Positions 9,462 to 16,270 are shown, numbered from the stretch's first letter. The stretch: DNA of 32,000 bases from Erysipelotrichaceae bacterium (GCA_050950925.1 JBMNIN010000003.1:347232-379231), one strand, 5' to 3'. Notes: generated from the letters alone by a model not told the origin. Numbers and translations are program-made.

Positions 9462-9583
9462 AATAAATTCCTCTATTCTTTATAATTATAGCACAAAAAA
9501 ACGTTCGAATTATTGTATAGGCAATACAGTAATTCAACGTCTTCTTATCCGTAGCAAATAAAGAAAGTTTTCTTATATTCAAT

Positions 9584-9614
9584 CTGATTAGAAACTTTTA
9601 AAAGTTTTAATCAG
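9584..9614 (-). terminator. AT-rich hairpin downstream of the three-gene operon
   Basis: CTGATTAGAAACTTTT pairs with AAAAGTTTTAATCAG (about 15 bp, one bulge), 14 nt after the stop at 9628. The U tract is weak. Confidence 0.4.
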
Positions 9615-9627
9615 TTATAATTGCTAA

Positions 9628-11529
9628 CTATTCAATATTGCTTTTATTCTCTCTTTTAATTATTTCAAATGGTATATAGTCATATTCCAGAACATCAGGT
9701 CTTGTTTTAACAAGTTTTTCCCAATTACATAAACAACTATGTGTTTTCTTAAATTCCTTATCAGTTTTTTCACCATATTTAAAACCATGTGTAAGCATAA
9801 AATAGCACCAGCGTCTATGTTCCATTTTTTGCAATTCTTCCCTGTCTTCAAGAGTATATACACTATTTTCAATCAGCCACTCCCAGGTTCCTTTCGCCAT
9901 AGCCTGGGCTATACTTGATTCTTTATCAAACAGACTGCGTCTATTCCATATATCTTCTATAGTATTTACATTATTCTTTATCTGTTTTCTGTCATCACTG
10001 CATTTATTATTATAACCTGTATACTCATCATATATTTTTTGATATTCAAAATTAAAAATCTTAGATATATTTTCAATTTCCTGATTGACAAGAGCAGCAT
10101 ATGAGAAAGCATCTTCATTGGAAAAAACCACTTTAGCAGAATCAAATAACGGTTTCATCTTTTCCTTTTCTTGAGAATACATCAGTATCGGAATGTCACA
10201 ATATAAAAATTCTGACGAACACATACTTTGTTTTAAACACGATACTATATCGACAACTGCTTTATCCAGAGCGATTGCCACAAAAATATAATTGAAAGGC
10301 ATTTCCCGATGACAATTATCAAAAACTTTATTAAACTCTATATTATTTACGTCCATTTTCCAAAAACGTATAACGAGCTTTCCATCCATTGAAAAAAGCG
10401 GTGTTTCCTTTTTATAATCCGGGTCAAAAGGAAATAAAAGACGATAGCAGTCAACATCCATTTCTTCAGATATTTTTTCTTTAGTATATTTAAGAGCTTC
10501 AAGAGCATCAGAAGCAAAATTTTTCATAAAAGAATTAATTTCATTTTCAATATTTTTATCAAATACGTCAATCAGTATTGTTGAATCGCTGGACAATATC
10601 GAAACATTCAATGCATGAATCAGAGCACTCTGACCGACTTCTCCAAAACCACATATAGCAACATGTATATCTTTTTTAATGTTTGAATCATTCTGATATG
10701 AATTATCCTGTTTAATCATTTCCTCTGCCGCCTTAAACAATCCTTCAACAGCTTTTTTCTTAGGATTGATGATTTTAATATTATTTTTTAATCTGGAAAT
10801 ATTAGCACTTTCATTGGAAATATTATCTGAAATCAATCCTTCAACATAAGGGTTTTTGCATAAAACATATATTTTCTGTTGCGAATTAAATTCTTTTTTT
10901 TCGTAATATTCTGAAATTAAATTCAGATTATAATAATTTACAAGATCATCACTATCACAAAGCAGGATATTCTTATATCTGTTAATATTTAAAATATTTA
11001 TCAGGTCTTTCAGTTTCATATTTTCTCTATTTTGAATTAAACTGATACCGTTTCGATAATACCAGAGTAAAAGTTCATCATCAACAACAGTATCTTCTAC
11101 AACTGTCAATTTACAGTCTTTTACAAGGGCATTGATAAATTTTTTATAATCGCTCCCTTTTCCAATAATAAGGAATTTATTACCTTTAAATCTCTTGCCA
11201 AAACCAATAATCCAGTTATATGGTTTTTTTATTAACATCAGCAAAAATGTTGCGGTAAAAAAAGGAGTAATGAGCAATGATAAAGCGTAAAAATGCGTCA
11301 ATATCTGAATACAGACATTTCCTTCATTCTCTTTCATAAAACCATAGGCAGCATCCAGACTTATTTCAGGATCAAGTTTTATCGCATTTATTATATTCTG
11401 TATGTTCAAATAGATTCTAAAATGGATGTCTTCAACATTGCTGTAATAAATCCACCCCTCCAATGCTAAAACAACAAATATACTAACAGTTACTACTAAA
11501 ATAATAAATTTAAAACCAAATCTTTTCAT
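9628..11529 (-). CDS. Membrane protein: 2 TM helices + two Rossmann/KTN-like modules + C-terminal RyR-like domain
   Basis: TM1 at aa 7-27 and TM2 at about aa 72-100. FLIIGKGSDY (aa 119-128) and VAICGFGEVGQSALIHAL (GxGxxG, aa 294-299). The C-terminus EHRRWCYFMLTHGFKYG...THSCLCNWEKL...EYDYIP matches the RyR-repeat pattern (HERW...GW.YG...HP.LVPW.EL). Confidence 0.6.
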   Translation of the reverse strand: MKRFGFKFIILVVTVSIFVVLALEGWIYYSNVEDIHFRIYLNIQNIINAIKLDPEISLDAAYGFMKENEGNVCIQILTHFYALSLLITPFFTATFLLMLIKKPYNWIIGFGKRFKGNKFLIIGKGSDYKKFINALVKDCKLTVVEDTVVDDELLLWYYRNGISLIQNRENMKLKDLINILNINRYKNILLCDSDDLVNYYNLNLISEYYEKKEFNSQQKIYVLCKNPYVEGLISDNISNESANISRLKNNIKIINPKKKAVEGLFKAAEEMIKQDNSYQNDSNIKKDIHVAICGFGEVGQSALIHALNVSILSSDSTILIDVFDKNIENEINSFMKNFASDALEALKYTKEKISEEMDVDCYRLLFPFDPDYKKETPLFSMDGKLVIRFWKMDVNNIEFNKVFDNCHREMPFNYIFVAIALDKAVVDIVSCLKQSMCSSEFLYCDIPILMYSQEKEKMKPLFDSAKVVFSNEDAFSYAALVNQEIENISKIFNFEYQKIYDEYTGYNNKCSDDRKQIKNNVNTIEDIWNRRSLFDKESSIAQAMAKGTWEWLIENSVYTLEDREELQKMEHRRWCYFMLTHGFKYGEKTDKEFKKTHSCLCNWEKLVKTRPDVLEYDYIPFEIIKRENKSNIE

Positions 11530-11576
11530 CGTTCTTCATTCCTTTTCTGCAAAACATTTAATATAAATCTATTATA

Positions 11577-12473
11577 TTATATAAGCTTGCGAGTACCTTT
11601 TTCTATATAAGCTAAAATGTCAGCACTTCTAATTTTTTGTGAATCTGTCTGTGACAACTCAGATAATGATTCTAAAGACACCCATTTAAATTCAAAAATA
11701 TCTGATTCAGCAGTTACATCATTATTTAACAGTTCACCATTATATAGCATAATAAACTCCTGACGAACCTCACCATCTGAGTAGACAAATCTGATGTCCG
11801 GATTAGTATAAATTCCTATAACATCTCTGACTCTTATATCAAGACCGCTTTTTTCTTTCACTCCCCTTATTGCACATTCGATAATACTTTCACCACATTT
11901 CATTGTGCAACCTGGCAGCATCCATTGGTTTAAGTCTTTGGGTTTTAACATCAGCAATTCATGCTTTGAATTAATAACAGCAATTTCAGTGGCAGGTTTT
12001 ATCGAGTTAGCTTCGGGAGCTTCATTTTGAAAATAGTATTCTTTTTTTAAAACTCTCATTTTTTCTTCCAGCCAGACCAGCTGTTCATCGCTGATTACCA
12101 CTGTTTTTTTATCGTTTATTGAAGGAACTTTTATAAATAAAAGCGTCGTTCCAGCTGCAACTCTCTGGGCATATGAAGTATCAGGTTCTATGGCATAAAA
12201 ATCACCCTTTTTAAACTCATAAATCTCACCAGTTTCAACATTCATGTATTCAGTCCAGCCGCTGATAATATACTGATATTCTGTAGCAACATCATGAACG
12301 TGCGCTGTTTCTGACTGACCGTCTGAATAACTTGAAATTCCAATCTCCAGTCTGTCATCGCGAATAAAAGTAATCTGTTGCGGTCTGGACAGATTTCCGA
12401 CAAAATACTGCCTGGTTGTGCTTTTTAGCACATCCGTAATATCTGAATTTTCGATTCTGATAATTTTTCCCAT
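11577..12473 (-). CDS. Cupin-Nudix fusion protein with a degenerate Nudix box
   Basis: aa 52-72 (GQSETAHVHDVATEYQYIISG) fit cupin motif 1, G(X)5HXH(X)4E(X)6G, exactly. aa 189-211 (CTMKCGESIIECAIRGVKEKSGL) align to the Nudix box GX5EX7REUXEEXGU with G1->C, E16->G and E20->K. An AAGGAG SD lies 17 nt after the upstream stop. Confidence 0.65.
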   Translation of the reverse strand: MGKIIRIENSDITDVLKSTTRQYFVGNLSRPQQITFIRDDRLEIGISSYSDGQSETAHVHDVATEYQYIISGWTEYMNVETGEIYEFKKGDFYAIEPDTSYAQRVAAGTTLLFIKVPSINDKKTVVISDEQLVWLEEKMRVLKKEYYFQNEAPEANSIKPATEIAVINSKHELLMLKPKDLNQWMLPGCTMKCGESIIECAIRGVKEKSGLDIRVRDVIGIYTNPDIRFVYSDGEVRQEFIMLYNGELLNNDVTAESDIFEFKWVSLESLSELSQTDSQKIRSADILAYIEKGTRKLI

Positions 12474-12490
12474 TACTCATTTCTCCTTTT

Positions 12491-15478
12491 CTAAACAAAG
12501 TATAGTTTTAAATAATTGTTTGTACCATTACAAAGTTCTTCTATTGATTCAACACAAGAGCCAAAATGCATTATTTTTGCCCGACTGATTGCTTCACTGC
12601 ATGCCACTGAAATCGGTGCAGTTCCTATTTTGCTTTCACAGGCCCCCAGTAAAGACTGACTCATTATAAGTCCCCAATCTTGTTTAATCTCTTCGTATAT
12701 TGCTCTAGCCCTTGAGGCAAAATCCATGGCCCCCATTACATCATTCAGTTTAAAATGAACATTCGCTATACCTAAATTAGCGTGTGCTATCCATCCCGGA
12801 ATCCCCTTTACAGTAGCATATCTTAGTGCATCAGAATAATATTTCAAAGCTTCGTCTTCTTTAGCATGCATACAGGTATAAATTGTTGCCAGAGTGCACG
12901 TCAGATATGCATCATATCGGGTCTTAATAGGAGCACGATTTTTAATCTCCTCAGGAATCAGTGCTAATGCCATATCGTAATTATTGTTTCTATAATGATA
13001 TTCACATAATTTTCTGATATTTCTTTTTTTGTAATCCATCAGATTATATTGAGATGCATATTCTTCAGAAATCATTAACCACTGTAAAGAATTGTCCCAT
13101 TCGCCAGAAAGAGCATATTTGCCACCAATAAAAAACAGTAATTCATAATAAGGTTTAGGATAGTTTTTACCTATCTTTGCATATAACGAAAGGGCTTCTT
13201 CAATAACCTTATTTACAGGGCGATAAAAAGCGGAGTGATGCAGACATCTTACTTTGAGCATTAATAGAAACTCATTATTATTGATGGTTTCAAAATCATA
13301 CTGTGACAGATAATTATCAATTATATCCACTGCTTCCCTATATCTGCCGGACCGATGCACAATATCAACATATATAGAAAGGGCTTCCTTATCAAAATCA
13401 GTAATCTCATATTTTTCTTTAGCCATCTCAAATATCCATAATAGAAAATCAGTATTTCCTTCTCTTTGAAGTTTGTGTAGAAAATCATTACGTTTTTCAG
13501 ATTCCCAAAATGCCTGAAGCAATTCGGAATTATTCCAATTTATCGGAAATTGTCGCCACACTTTCCAGTACGGGTCTAATTTATCTTTCTTAGAAAGTAG
13601 AAATTCTTCAAGTTCAATATACTTTCCTGACGCAATATAATAGCCGCCAATATGATTTTTAATATAATTTTGAAGTAACATATTATCAACTGCTTCATCA
13701 TTTATCCGAAAGCAATTTTCTATTAATTTTCTGCAGTGACGAGCCAGCTTTAATGCTCCTTTCTGATAATCCACATAAAATTCTCCGCTCTGTTTACTGT
13801 TAGTAAACCAGTCTTTAACAGACTTATGTGAAAAACTCAGCAAAAAAAGCCCTGATTCTTCATAACGATTTACCCAGGAACCAAGCTTGTCCAGATAGAC
13901 AATAAAAGTATACTGATTGTATCCGCAAGCTGTATGAACCAATTCTTCAGGTATAGTATCAGAAATAGATAATAACTCTAAAATCCCTCTCAACTCAACA
14001 AACGACTCTTGAACAGGGAACTTTCTTTCCATTGACTTGCGATAAAAACCTGCTAAACCTTTTGGATAAGAATCAATTTCACTCAATTTGATACTTCCAT
14101 TTTTTATATCTGCAACCAGTAATTCGGCATATAGAAAAATCCCATCACTTAATTCAGATATTTTTGTTATTATTTCGATGAAATTTGATGTCTTATCGTA
14201 TTCATCTTTAAGCGCCTTTGTCAGATAAGCCAGAATGTCATTATAGTTTTCTGGCATATCTTCTATGATATCTATAACATCATAGGTCTGGAAATACTTG
14301 CTGACGTTTTTTTCCTGACGACTTGTAAAAATAAATTTAATCCAGCGAGGTAATCTATCAACACACCTTGCAAAAACACTGGCTAAAGGATTATCTCCAT
14401 CACTTTCCGCTTCATCCAGTCCGTCCACAATTATAATACCTGTTTCGCGATTACCGTCTACAAGGTTTGATAAAGGATACGTCAGAAGAAAATCAAATAG
14501 TGTTTCAGAATTCATTTCATCGAGACTATCTTCCAACTCTAACTGATGTAATAATAATCGTCTGTAATCCTGGATTTTAGTCGCCAGTCTGAAAGCTATA
14601 GTCTTTATCAGACTATTTGGGTTAGTAGTATTTTCCCGATTCCATTCACATAAAAAACAACCATAAACATAATGATTATAATGCGAGAAATTAACACTGA
14701 ATGCACTTTTGCCACTACCTGGACGTCCATACAGCATCAGTGCCTTTGTTGACTTATTTTCATACCAGTTACTGATATAATCTTCCAGCCATCCCCTCTT
14801 CTGAAAATCCTTTGAAAGTAGTTCTCTCTTTTTATTTGAGTCAGGATAAGGAGCAAGTTTTGTTTCCAGAATCTTAATATCACCACTCAATTCATGTGAT
14901 TTTTTTGATTCAATCACCTGACATAATTCAGCAAACTTTTCACTGTACCATTTTTCAAATTCGGTTTCAGAATTTTTTTTGATTTCATACCAGTCGCTCA
15001 TATCAAGCCATTGAATATTCGAAATTGTAATTGGGGGTTTAATTCTATTTTCTGATTCCAAAAGGACTGTTTTGATATTTGCTCCTGCTACACTGACCGC
15101 AATTTTCAATTCATCTAAACATACACCAGGATTTCGTGTTGAATGTTCGGACAAAAATGCAATAATACCTGACACACTCAGAATGCCGTTGAGTATTTCT
15201 TCCCGCCAGTGATTTCCTGCTTTTATTTCACTGGTATCAATCCATATATAATGACCTCTTTTTTCCAGGTCACGCTTTATACGTTCAACAAGCACACTGT
15301 TTCTATCGTGTCCATAACTAAAAAAAAGTTTGAGGCCTCCATCATCATTACAGTTCTGCTTTTTAAAATCCAGAATTTGCTGTTCTGTAAAGGTTCTATC
15401 ACAATCCTCACAAACAAATCTCTTTCCTTTTTTGCTATAATAAACATTTTCAGAGCCACAATGTAGACACTTTTCCAT
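12491..15478 (-). CDS. Zn-ribbon + TIR + STAND (NACHT-like) P-loop NTPase + TPR-like repeat protein (bacterial NLR-like)
   Basis: CxxC...CxxC at C4/C7/C23/C26. TIR_2-type signature LFFSYGHD (aa 51-58) and CLDEL with candidate catalytic E123. Walker A GRPGSGKS (aa 251-258) and Walker B IIIVDGLDEAE (aa 348-358). The helical repeat-rich C-terminus covers about aa 640-995. A GGAGGTG-like SD precedes the start. Confidence 0.8.
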   Translation of the reverse strand: MEKCLHCGSENVYYSKKGKRFVCEDCDRTFTEQQILDFKKQNCNDDGGLKLFFSYGHDRNSVLVERIKRDLEKRGHYIWIDTSEIKAGNHWREEILNGILSVSGIIAFLSEHSTRNPGVCLDELKIAVSVAGANIKTVLLESENRIKPPITISNIQWLDMSDWYEIKKNSETEFEKWYSEKFAELCQVIESKKSHELSGDIKILETKLAPYPDSNKKRELLSKDFQKRGWLEDYISNWYENKSTKALMLYGRPGSGKSAFSVNFSHYNHYVYGCFLCEWNRENTTNPNSLIKTIAFRLATKIQDYRRLLLHQLELEDSLDEMNSETLFDFLLTYPLSNLVDGNRETGIIIVDGLDEAESDGDNPLASVFARCVDRLPRWIKFIFTSRQEKNVSKYFQTYDVIDIIEDMPENYNDILAYLTKALKDEYDKTSNFIEIITKISELSDGIFLYAELLVADIKNGSIKLSEIDSYPKGLAGFYRKSMERKFPVQESFVELRGILELLSISDTIPEELVHTACGYNQYTFIVYLDKLGSWVNRYEESGLFLLSFSHKSVKDWFTNSKQSGEFYVDYQKGALKLARHCRKLIENCFRINDEAVDNMLLQNYIKNHIGGYYIASGKYIELEEFLLSKKDKLDPYWKVWRQFPINWNNSELLQAFWESEKRNDFLHKLQREGNTDFLLWIFEMAKEKYEITDFDKEALSIYVDIVHRSGRYREAVDIIDNYLSQYDFETINNNEFLLMLKVRCLHHSAFYRPVNKVIEEALSLYAKIGKNYPKPYYELLFFIGGKYALSGEWDNSLQWLMISEEYASQYNLMDYKKRNIRKLCEYHYRNNNYDMALALIPEEIKNRAPIKTRYDAYLTCTLATIYTCMHAKEDEALKYYSDALRYATVKGIPGWIAHANLGIANVHFKLNDVMGAMDFASRARAIYEEIKQDWGLIMSQSLLGACESKIGTAPISVACSEAISRAKIMHFGSCVESIEELCNGTNNYLKLYFV

Positions 15479-15653
15479 ACTCCCACCTCAACTGTCATTG
15501 ATTTATATTATTTTATTATTAATTTGCCCGGCATTGTATATTCTTGCTTTTTATTACTACCTAATATTAAGAATTAAACTGATTTTTTAATACACTGACA
15601 GGTAGAATATACATCAAAATGGCCCAAAACAAAGAGTTCTGCAACGGAATTAA

Positions 15654-15682
15654 TTATAAAATACAAAAACATATACGTCAAG
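15654..15682 (-). promoter_or_regulatory. Near-consensus promoter TTGACG-17-TATAAT for the TIR-STAND operon
   Basis: On the minus strand the -35 is plus 15677-15682, the spacer is 17 nt, and the -10 is plus 15654-15659. This implies a 5' leader of about 170 nt before the ATG at 15478. Confidence 0.55.
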
Positions 15683-16201
15683 AAAACCGTTTTTTTAGCG
15701 CGCACTCCTTTTTTTGTTTTTATAATGCATGTATCTCATAAATTATTTTTATTCAGTTATCCCAAGTTATCCTTAACATTATTTTCAACTGTTCTGATTA
15801 TTCTTTGAAACTCTCATCATTTTTCCCACTTGAATTACCTAAATCTCAACCTTCTATATCAGCTTAGGAAATTACAGAGTAATCCACATTACAACCCCTA
15901 GTGATTACCATATCAGCTTCAAAAATCTCAACTGTCTTTTTTGAATACTGTGTTCTTTCATATCTATTCCATACAATTCTTTTATCAAACATACAGCGTT
16001 CTGATTGGTTTTAGACTGCACCCTTGTCTGCTAATAAAGTTCATACATACCTGAACCTTTTTTTCAAGTGCTTATGCAAGCTGACCGCATAGGAATTGTA
16101 CATATAAATAATGGTCATTTTTTCTGACCATACTAATCAATGACTTTCTATTAAAATATTTATCATTTCTATTTTACATTTTACAATCATAATCATATTT
16201 A

Positions 16202-16222
16202 AGGCCACAAGATGTGGCCTTA
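16202..16222 (-). terminator. GC-rich hairpin ending the rimO-transketolase operon
   Basis: AAGGCCACA-aga-TGTGGCCTT, 49 nt downstream of the stop at 16271. The U tract is poor on either strand. Confidence 0.55.
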
Positions 16223-16270
16223 AATACTGATATTCAATTTGATTTATTATAAATTAAAAATTTCAAATTT

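Follow-up and report, generated by a model that had tools for sequence, protein, structure and literature searches.

In a stretch of 32,000 nt from the genome of an Erysipelotrichaceae bacterium (GCA_050950925.1, JBMNIN010000003.1:347232-379231), here referred to as the window, an open reading frame (ORF) of 298 amino acids (aa) encodes a protein in which an N-terminal cupin domain is fused to a C-terminal Nudix domain. The frame is open on the minus strand only, the corresponding frame of the plus strand being full of stops, and its start codon, which is served by a strong Shine-Dalgarno sequence, lies 17 nt past the stop codon of a large gene for a protein with a Zn-ribbon, a TIR domain, a STAND nucleoside triphosphatase (NTPase) and a C-terminal TPR region (from now on referred to as the TIR-STAND). 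On its downstream side the cupin-Nudix gene is followed, after 47 nt, by a gene for a membrane protein of 633 aa. From the analyses described below the fusion protein appears to be a lineage-specific and catalytically disabled member of a conserved cupin-Nudix family.

Six other contigs from metagenomes carry the same protein and the same DNA, next to the same genes and in the same chromosomal context, and the sequence is therefore real and not an assembly error. Five of these contigs are identical across the whole island in which the gene is located and all six match the gene to 100% at the DNA level, so that the copies are clonal and thereby uninformative on selection. A search of 40 related genomes revealed no orthologue, and among 5.8 billion clusters there was no cupin-Nudix protein with an identity between 63% and 100%.

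The Nudix box and the two halves of the protein

When analysing the C-terminal half, the Nudix box was located to aa 189–211 with the sequence CTMKCGESIIECAIRGVKEKSGL, following the pattern C-x5-E-x7-R-G-V-K-E-K-S-G-L, which fails the signature for catalytic competence, G-x5-E-x7-R-E-U-x-E-E-x-G-U, through the loss of G1, E16 and E20. An earlier note on this DNA had read these three positions as replaced by C, G and K, and the alignments, both with homologues and with solved Nudix proteins, confirm that reading. The Glu that the family conserves at box position 4 is K192 in the window copy, and E7, R15, E19 and G22 are still present. The register is well defined since the box aligns without gaps with 23 and with 119 homologues, reading GTLEFGESMTECALREVKEESGL, and lines up position by position, in pairwise HMMER alignments, with those of the solved Nudix proteins 3smd, 3fk9, 3id9 and 3oga; no shift that would bring the glutamates back was seen.

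That the C-terminal half is a Nudix domain at all, which the earlier note had left to be checked, is supported by a match to Pfam NUDIX (PF00293) over aa 161–273 with 38.7 bits compared to a gathering score of 21.1, and by phmmer matches to 13 solved Nudix proteins. An AlphaFold2 (AF2) model of the whole protein has two domains with a mean predicted local distance difference test (pLDDT) score of 83 and a predicted template-modelling (pTM) score of 0.59, showing the Nudix fold for the C-terminal half, and a Foldseek search with this model gave only Nudix hydrolases among the top 50 matches. The solved relatives are not diagnostic of a substrate, the best one being 3smd, of unknown function, together with NudI, MutT and Ap4A/Ap6A hydrolases at 15–24% identity. 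Neither the proline typical of ADP-ribose (ADPR) hydrolases nor the tyrosine typical of ApnA hydrolases was found at its characteristic spacing, as generally described, in the family alignment, and NCBIfam gave only sub-threshold matches to NudI, NadM and RppH. The PADLOC defence models matched only weakly, with PDC-S07 on the Nudix part (E = 1.7e-4), and no winged-helix or helix-turn-helix (HTH) domain was matched in the protein, the C-terminus consisting of the Nudix C-terminal helix. Within the box, the changes G189C and F193C lie near C200, which is invariant in the family (box position 12), and create the arrangement C-x3-C-x6-C (aa 189–200, 11880–11909, minus strand); these cysteines could form a thiol-based metal or redox site.

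To determine how unusual the box is, the family was collected, giving 359 matches, nearly all of exactly 298 aa and the closest 63% identical, with full-length homology at E = 1.9e-123 over 100% of the length. Among the close homologues all seven fixed box positions are kept in 117 out of 119, and the other two differ at G22 only. In a wider set, including distant and stand-alone forms, 266 of 295 Nudix domains are fully canonical and the combination seen in the window is found in none of the others. The degenerate box is thus real in the window copy but is not a property of the family, and since the close homologues carry a textbook box its loss is lineage-specific. In distant full-length members (25–46% identity) the Nudix box is canonical and the cupin H-x-H...E motif is often gone, which makes the Nudix half the constant catalytic part at the family level.

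The relatives closest in organisation (P0061, P0089 and P0053, annotated by NCBI as 'NUDIX domain-containing protein') belong to an uncharacterised family and share the colinear 298-aa architecture with 52–63% identity, the location 16–17 nt after a homologous Zn-ribbon-TIR-STAND-TPR gene, the H-x-H...E...Y residues of the cupin and the motif YSDGEVRQEF. They differ in having the canonical box GTLEFGESxxxCALREVKEESGL, whose positions 1, 4, 16 and 20 are occupied by C, K, G and K in the window copy, and the latter shows 13 further changes at near-invariant Nudix positions.

In the N-terminal half aa 52–72 consist of the sequence GQSETAHVHDVATEYQYIISG, an exact fit to cupin motif 1, G-x5-H-x-H-x4-E-x6-G, just as the earlier note had it. 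Its conclusion that this is a metal-binding cupin holds for motif 1 but not for motif 2, GDFYAIEPDTSYAQR, which fails the canonical pattern G(x)5PxG(x)2H(x)3N and in which Tyr101 replaces the usual His. Tyr101 aligns with the fourth-ligand His of quercetinase and is a Tyr across the close family and a His in a few stand-alone relatives, and G52 of motif 1 is not conserved among relatives; H58, H60 and E65, together with Y101 and Q103, are candidates for conserved ligands. The match to Pfam Cupin_2 (aa 50–101) is just below the cut-off, 24.3 bits compared to 27.2, and 17 out of 18 family members match at E values up to 0.01. Despite this sub-threshold score the cupin fold, a double-stranded beta-helix, is supported by an AF2 model of the domain alone (pLDDT 94, pTM 0.85) and by Foldseek, which relates it with a probability of 1.0 to small metal cupins. 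The fold gives only generic relatives with respect to function (dioxygenases, phosphomannose isomerase and KdgF, E ~1e-5, template-modelling scores 0.5–0.6). The suggestion that the cupin might supply the metal site for the altered Nudix domain found no support in the alignments, as relatives with an intact box have the same H-x-H...E...Y and no compensating change was seen in the cupin.

The two halves of the window copy have diverged very differently. If a column is called near-invariant when its conservation among the remaining 119 homologues is 97% or more, the cupin departs at 2 out of 51 such columns and the Nudix half at 17 out of 59, the latter including R178P, N181L, G189C, E192K, E204G, E208K, D256E, E258D and S259I. 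When compared with the rest of the family, the window cupin has an average identity of 72% and its Nudix half one of 48%, where the other members average 75% and 76%, respectively, among themselves. FastTree phylogenies gave the window copy a terminal branch of 0.19 when built from the cupin and of 1.16, roughly six-fold longer, when built from the Nudix half, where the largest of the other branches is 0.37. The profile scores follow the same trend, with Cupin_2 giving about 24–26 bits in all members and NUDIX 72–80 bits in the relatives compared to the 38.7 bits found here. A gene by gene comparison, based on seven loci only, gave the window lineage a share of private changes of 10% for the Zn-ribbon and TIR, 12% for the NTPase, 10% for the cupin, 21% for the TPR region and 40% for the Nudix half. 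The load in the TPR region of the STAND (aa 641–995, 12491–13558), 21% against 10–12% for the TIR and NTPase in these seven sequences, parallels that of the Nudix half, and the two may have co-evolved.

The Nudix half has nevertheless no stop codon, frameshift or indel in 138 codons, and the probability of a frame staying open through ~35 neutral replacements at a G+C content of 34% is about 5%. The motif YSDGEVRQEF, E195, R203, E207, W264 and SQ..R are kept. This suggests, with modest statistical support, that catalysis has been lost and that the fold is still under constraint.

The island and the partners of the family

The features of the locus are collected in Table 1. In same-genus genomes the transketolase gene is followed directly by the GH36 gene, and the three genes located between them in the window therefore represent an insertion, which is private to one species, none of the 40 relatives having the gene. 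The ~790 bp upstream of the TIR-STAND gene (15479–16270) are free of ORFs and composite; the ~500 bp beside the transketolase gene (~15764–16270) are 65% homologous to the spacer in island-less same-genus genomes, placing the boundary of the island near 15760.

Table 1. Location of the cupin-Nudix gene, its domains and motifs, and the surrounding features in the window.
Feature	Coordinates	Strand	Basis
Cupin-Nudix ORF P0001, 298 aa	11577..12473	-	ORF call; Pfam; 359 homologues
Shine-Dalgarno sequence AAGGAG, 9 nt 5' of the cupin-Nudix ATG	12483..12488	-	Read from sequence
Cupin beta-barrel, aa 42–124	12102..12350	-	AF2, Foldseek, metal-cupin profile matches with HxH..E aligned
Cupin motif 1, G52-x5-H58-x-H60-x4-E65-x6-G72	12258..12320	-	H58, H60 and E65 invariant in relatives
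Nudix fold, aa 143–292	11598..12047	-	Pfam, AF2, Foldseek, alignments with solved structures
Degenerate Nudix box CTMKCGESIIECAIRGVKEKSGL; G1>C189, E4>K192, E16>G204, E20>K208	11841..11909	-	Alignments with homologues and solved Nudix proteins
Family-specific motif YSDGEVRQEF, aa 231–240, fully kept	11754..11783	-	Alignment
Zn-ribbon - TIR - STAND NTPase (NPHP3_N) - TPR, 995 aa	12491..15478	-	Pfam; motifs
C-terminal TPR sensor module of the STAND, aa ~650–995	12491..13531	-	Co-segregation with cupin-Nudix
Membrane protein, 633 aa, Rossmann-like modules, weak C-terminal RyR match, probable effector	9628..11529	-	
Inserted three-gene island, approximate extent	9506..15763	.	Same-genus flank comparison

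In the TIR-STAND the TIR glutamate (CLDELK), Walker A (GRPGSGKS) and Walker B (VDGLDE) are all intact. The RyR match of the 633-aa protein reaches 15.7 bits, which is below the cut-off. Relatives of this protein (35% identity) are found alone or beside a TIR gene and never beside a Nudix gene, and it was therefore rejected as a fixed partner of cupin-Nudix. A second architecture of a RyR-bearing candidate effector is found beside a TIR-STAND and a cupin-Nudix gene in a Bacilli and a Bacteroidales metagenome-assembled genome (MAG) (L023/L118, 9456–11720, and L117, 4115–5878), in the form of a protein of ~750 aa whose RyR domain (Pfam, 34 bits) is flanked by an HD-like motif on the N-terminal side and by a SLOG/LOG-like region on the C-terminal side. 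The Nudix boxes of these loci are canonical, and a link between the degenerate box and a RyR effector was for this reason rejected. RyR-domain proteins of phages have been shown to bind or cleave 2'/3'cADPR (cyclic ADP-ribose; preprint 10.64898/2026.05.28.727677), and in this clade the TIR is plausibly the signal generator and the RyR proteins the receivers.

A scan of species-representative genomes detected the cupin-Nudix family in Bacillota, Actinomycetota, Bacteroidota, Acidobacteriota and Pseudomonadota. The window gene, with full-length colinear homology and its position after a TPR-bearing STAND, belongs to the STAND partners within it. In the close relatives the cupin-Nudix gene is located 16–17 nt downstream of a Zn-ribbon-TIR-STAND-TPR gene whose product is 55–62% identical over its full length to the window STAND. 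Most of them are carried by conjugative elements (TraG/VirD4, Tn916-type Xis/Int, ArdC) with arrays of TIR fusions, as distinct from the chromosomal three-gene island of the window, and the genes downstream vary between TIR-fusion arrays, DUF4062-STAND and MFS or PDZ proteins. On the conjugative elements of gut Bacillota (L001–L009 and L021) up to six different TIR-fusion genes follow the pair, comprising TIR alone, TIR-LRR (LRR_5), TIR-protein kinase, guanylate kinase-TIR, TIR-FtsK and NADAR. These arrays differ between otherwise similar elements and resemble the multi-thsB arrays of Thoeris loci. In a Sphaerochaetaceae MAG (L119, 11300–14196) a second TIR-STAND, apparently split into 246 and 739 aa, is situated downstream of the pair.

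To address which part of the STAND the family follows, the upstream genes of 42 cupin-Nudix loci were compared with the window STAND. A match was found in 21, for 16 of these over aa ~650–995 (TPR) only, and only five of the 21 carry a TIR domain; the TIR-less partners are either STAND-TPR proteins with the P-loop near the N-terminus or HTH-nSTAND1-TPR proteins. In the reverse test peptide patterns of the TIR and the Zn-ribbon served to collect homologues of the TIR-STAND. All three TIR-STANDs with similarity through the TPR part have cupin-Nudix directly downstream, and ~12 with adequate flank, in which the similarity ends near aa 580–630, have none. The family thus follows the TPR sensor module and not the TIR domain or the NTPase, which, the loci being phylogenetically non-independent, is a strong pattern and not a probability. 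The earlier note had drawn attention to the adjacent TIR enzyme; an intact TIR-STAND does adjoin the gene, but the family as such is not tied to TIR since it also occurs with TIR-less STANDs.

In a clade with 42–49% identity a small HD-domain gene follows cupin-Nudix in 15 loci, with or without a STAND, and in some of the HD loci a CorA-like membrane protein is found upstream in place of the STAND. The domains of the family are also shuffled (P0133, 431 aa; P0125, 298 aa; L017 and L018), with a cupin-Nudix-HD triple fusion and a Nudix-less cupin-HD fusion as well as separate cupin and Nudix genes that overlap or abut. One locus with a split or fused form has an OLD/UvrD (Gabija-like) pair as its neighbour, and another has an RHS toxin gene.

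Relation to known systems

Nudix folds without catalysis are known from NrtR, an ADPR-responsive repressor, from the NUDT9-H domain of TRPM2 and from the C-terminal domain of MutY. The window protein resembles NrtR and NUDT9-H in that the fold is kept and the box glutamates are lost, implying binding without hydrolysis, and in TRPM2 the domain is moreover functionally linked with an ion channel and with ADPR. Unlike NrtR, the window protein has no winged-helix DNA-binding domain and instead an N-terminal cupin, and unlike TRPM2 it is not fused to a channel-like protein, its family being tied to a STAND sensor module.

Another parallel is MalT, a STAND regulator that is held inactive by MalY, Aes and MalK independently of their catalysis. 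Here as well a protein with an enzyme fold is genetically tied to a STAND with a TPR-like sensor (Pfam TPR_MalT matches) and catalysis is apparently dispensable for keeping the partner. The output differs, being TIR and not transcription in the window STAND, the HTH-nSTAND1 relatives excepted.

The neighbouring gene has the effector-NTPase-sensor layout of TIR-bearing NLR-type defence proteins (Avs/AVAST, bNACHT), with an intact TIR. The locus also resembles Thoeris, at the domain level only and with a weak RyR match, in that a separate protein of a signal-binding type (RyR) follows a TIR gene. None of the systems described as Avs/AVAST, bNACHT, TIR-NLR or Thoeris has a cupin-Nudix component. 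A survey of Thoeris types I–XI makes no mention of Nudix, cupin or RyR and sets aside the TIRs in Avs-type proteins (preprint 10.64898/2025.12.03.692087). Surveys of conflict systems mention Nudix in general terms only, and full-text literature searches gave no description of a cupin-Nudix partner of STAND/TIR systems. Nudix folds without catalysis and TIR-bearing STAND defence proteins are already known; the present analysis adds the co-segregation of a cupin-Nudix (+HD) accessory with the TPR module and the natural variant with a dead box.

Possible function of the cupin-Nudix partner

As the canonical metal and catalytic positions are replaced in a genuine Nudix fold, a non-hydrolytic role for this half is the most economical reading, and with the fold, the family motif and a constrained cupin half all kept the protein is likely a non-catalytic partner of the TIR-STAND. 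The proposal favoured here, which we would put at an even chance, is that the Nudix half has lost the canonical Mg2+-dependent hydrolysis of diphosphates and has a binding or structural function, and that the retained function is carried by the cupin half together with the tie to the TPR module. The earlier note had proposed a sensor that only binds an ADPR-like ligand; of this the non-hydrolytic part agrees with the degenerate box, while the link to TIR and ADPR is weaker because it is the TPR module that the family follows.

From homology and gene neighbourhood, on which every step of the following is based, we infer that the cupin-Nudix protein would act on the input side of the STAND. It might act on a nucleotide-type ligand of the TPR module, by processing or presenting it or by taking it away, or be itself an enzyme partner bound by this module in the manner of MalY or Aes with MalT. 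The TPR module would read a cue together with, or via, its partner, leading to switching and oligomerisation of the NTPase and to NAD+ cleavage by the TIR domain. An ADPR-type product would then reach the RyR domain of the membrane protein and cause membrane damage or ion flux. The intact TIR domain would in this way provide the output, its NAD-derived product probably acting on the RyR-domain membrane protein.

Several observations weigh against a non-hydrolytic partner of the TPR module. In half of the cupin-Nudix loci a STAND is missing and the neighbours are CorA-like or unrelated, and the partnership is therefore not obligatory. The TPR association would also fit cupin-Nudix (+HD) as an effector in trans that is recruited by the module. 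E7, R15 and E19 remain in the box, some Nudix-fold enzymes work with atypical boxes, and a residual or altered activity of the window Nudix domain is possible. Furthermore, the argument from the open frame is significant only at the ~5% level and, judging from the pTM of 0.59, the geometry between the two domains is uncertain in the AF2 model.

The divergence of the Nudix half could also be that of a relic, in decay because selection was relaxed once the island had become stranded in a chromosome of small size, where TIR and RyR perhaps took over the effector role of Nudix (+HD) and the gene is kept for its cupin or is being lost. The catalytic residues are lost together with the 13 other near-invariant positions, on a branch ~6 times longer than that of the cupin, the HD partner of the neighbouring clade is absent without any remnant found in the window, and the island is private to one species and outside the conjugative-element context of its nearest relatives. 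On the other hand, the 138 codons without stop, frameshift or indel would have about a 5% chance at 34% G+C if neutral, all ten residues of the family motif, along with other invariant positions, are kept, the Shine-Dalgarno sequence, the tight operon spacing and the partner genes are intact, and streamlined genomes of 1.6 Mb usually delete dead DNA, which together make decay rather unlikely. An altered chemistry, with another reaction or another metal requirement that would be served by E195 and E207, by the new Lys or Cys residues or by the metal site of the cupin, draws on the retained E7, R15 and E19, on the intact H-x-H...E site and on the new C189 and C193 near the family-invariant C200. 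GDP-mannose mannosyl hydrolase and IPP isomerase are examples of atypical enzymes with a Nudix fold. Such a change of function is nonetheless very unlikely, as relatives with a canonical box share the cupin site, which hence offers no compensation, the changes are scattered over many invariant Nudix positions instead of re-tooling one pocket, and no other member shares the pattern, so that there is no clade maintained with a new motif.

With the gene placed in a tight operon between an intact TIR gene and the gene of the RyR-domain membrane protein, the dead Nudix domain might also hold an ADPR-type TIR product uncleaved, either as a buffer that sets a threshold or as a co-sensor for the membrane protein. 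With two Glu replaced by Lys at the metal site, direct contacts with phosphates would be favoured, and RyR domains bind cADPR isomers (preprint 10.64898/2026.05.28.727677). Such a function is quite unlikely when considering that the family tracks the TPR module also in TIR-less STANDs and is missing from TIR-STANDs with other C-termini, that the TIR genes found beside relatives of the 633-aa protein come without a Nudix gene and that the pairs beside RyR proteins (L023, L117) have canonical boxes. Nor is the proline of ADPR hydrolases found at the distance downstream of the box usually ascribed to it. It is also conceivable that the TPR sensor of this NLR-like protein monitors cupin-Nudix as a guarded enzyme or decoy, the window copy being a pure decoy free from catalysis; the state that is monitored might be the ligand-bound form or one modified or attacked by a phage factor. 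Plant NLRs watch decoys in the form of dead enzymes, for example ZAR1 with pseudokinases, and the system would be their counterpart in bacteria. We regard this as a doubtful explanation, with little probability, but if it is true, STAND immune systems that depend on an accessory protein would form a new class found across many phyla.

Taken by itself, one degenerate Nudix box found in one species amounts to a modest curiosity. NLR-like STAND proteins are, however, central to bacterial, plant and animal immunity, and how their sensors are triggered is known for few of them. Here a conserved partner of an enzyme type follows one TPR sensor module across five phyla, whatever the output domain of the STAND. 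The contrast between the window copy and a canonical homologue bears on whether the partner is a ligand processor, a regulator, a decoy or an effector. The window copy constitutes a natural experiment, having apparently shed catalysis while its cupin half, its open frame and its tie to the partner were kept, and this persistence suggests that at least part of the role of the protein is independent of hydrolysis.

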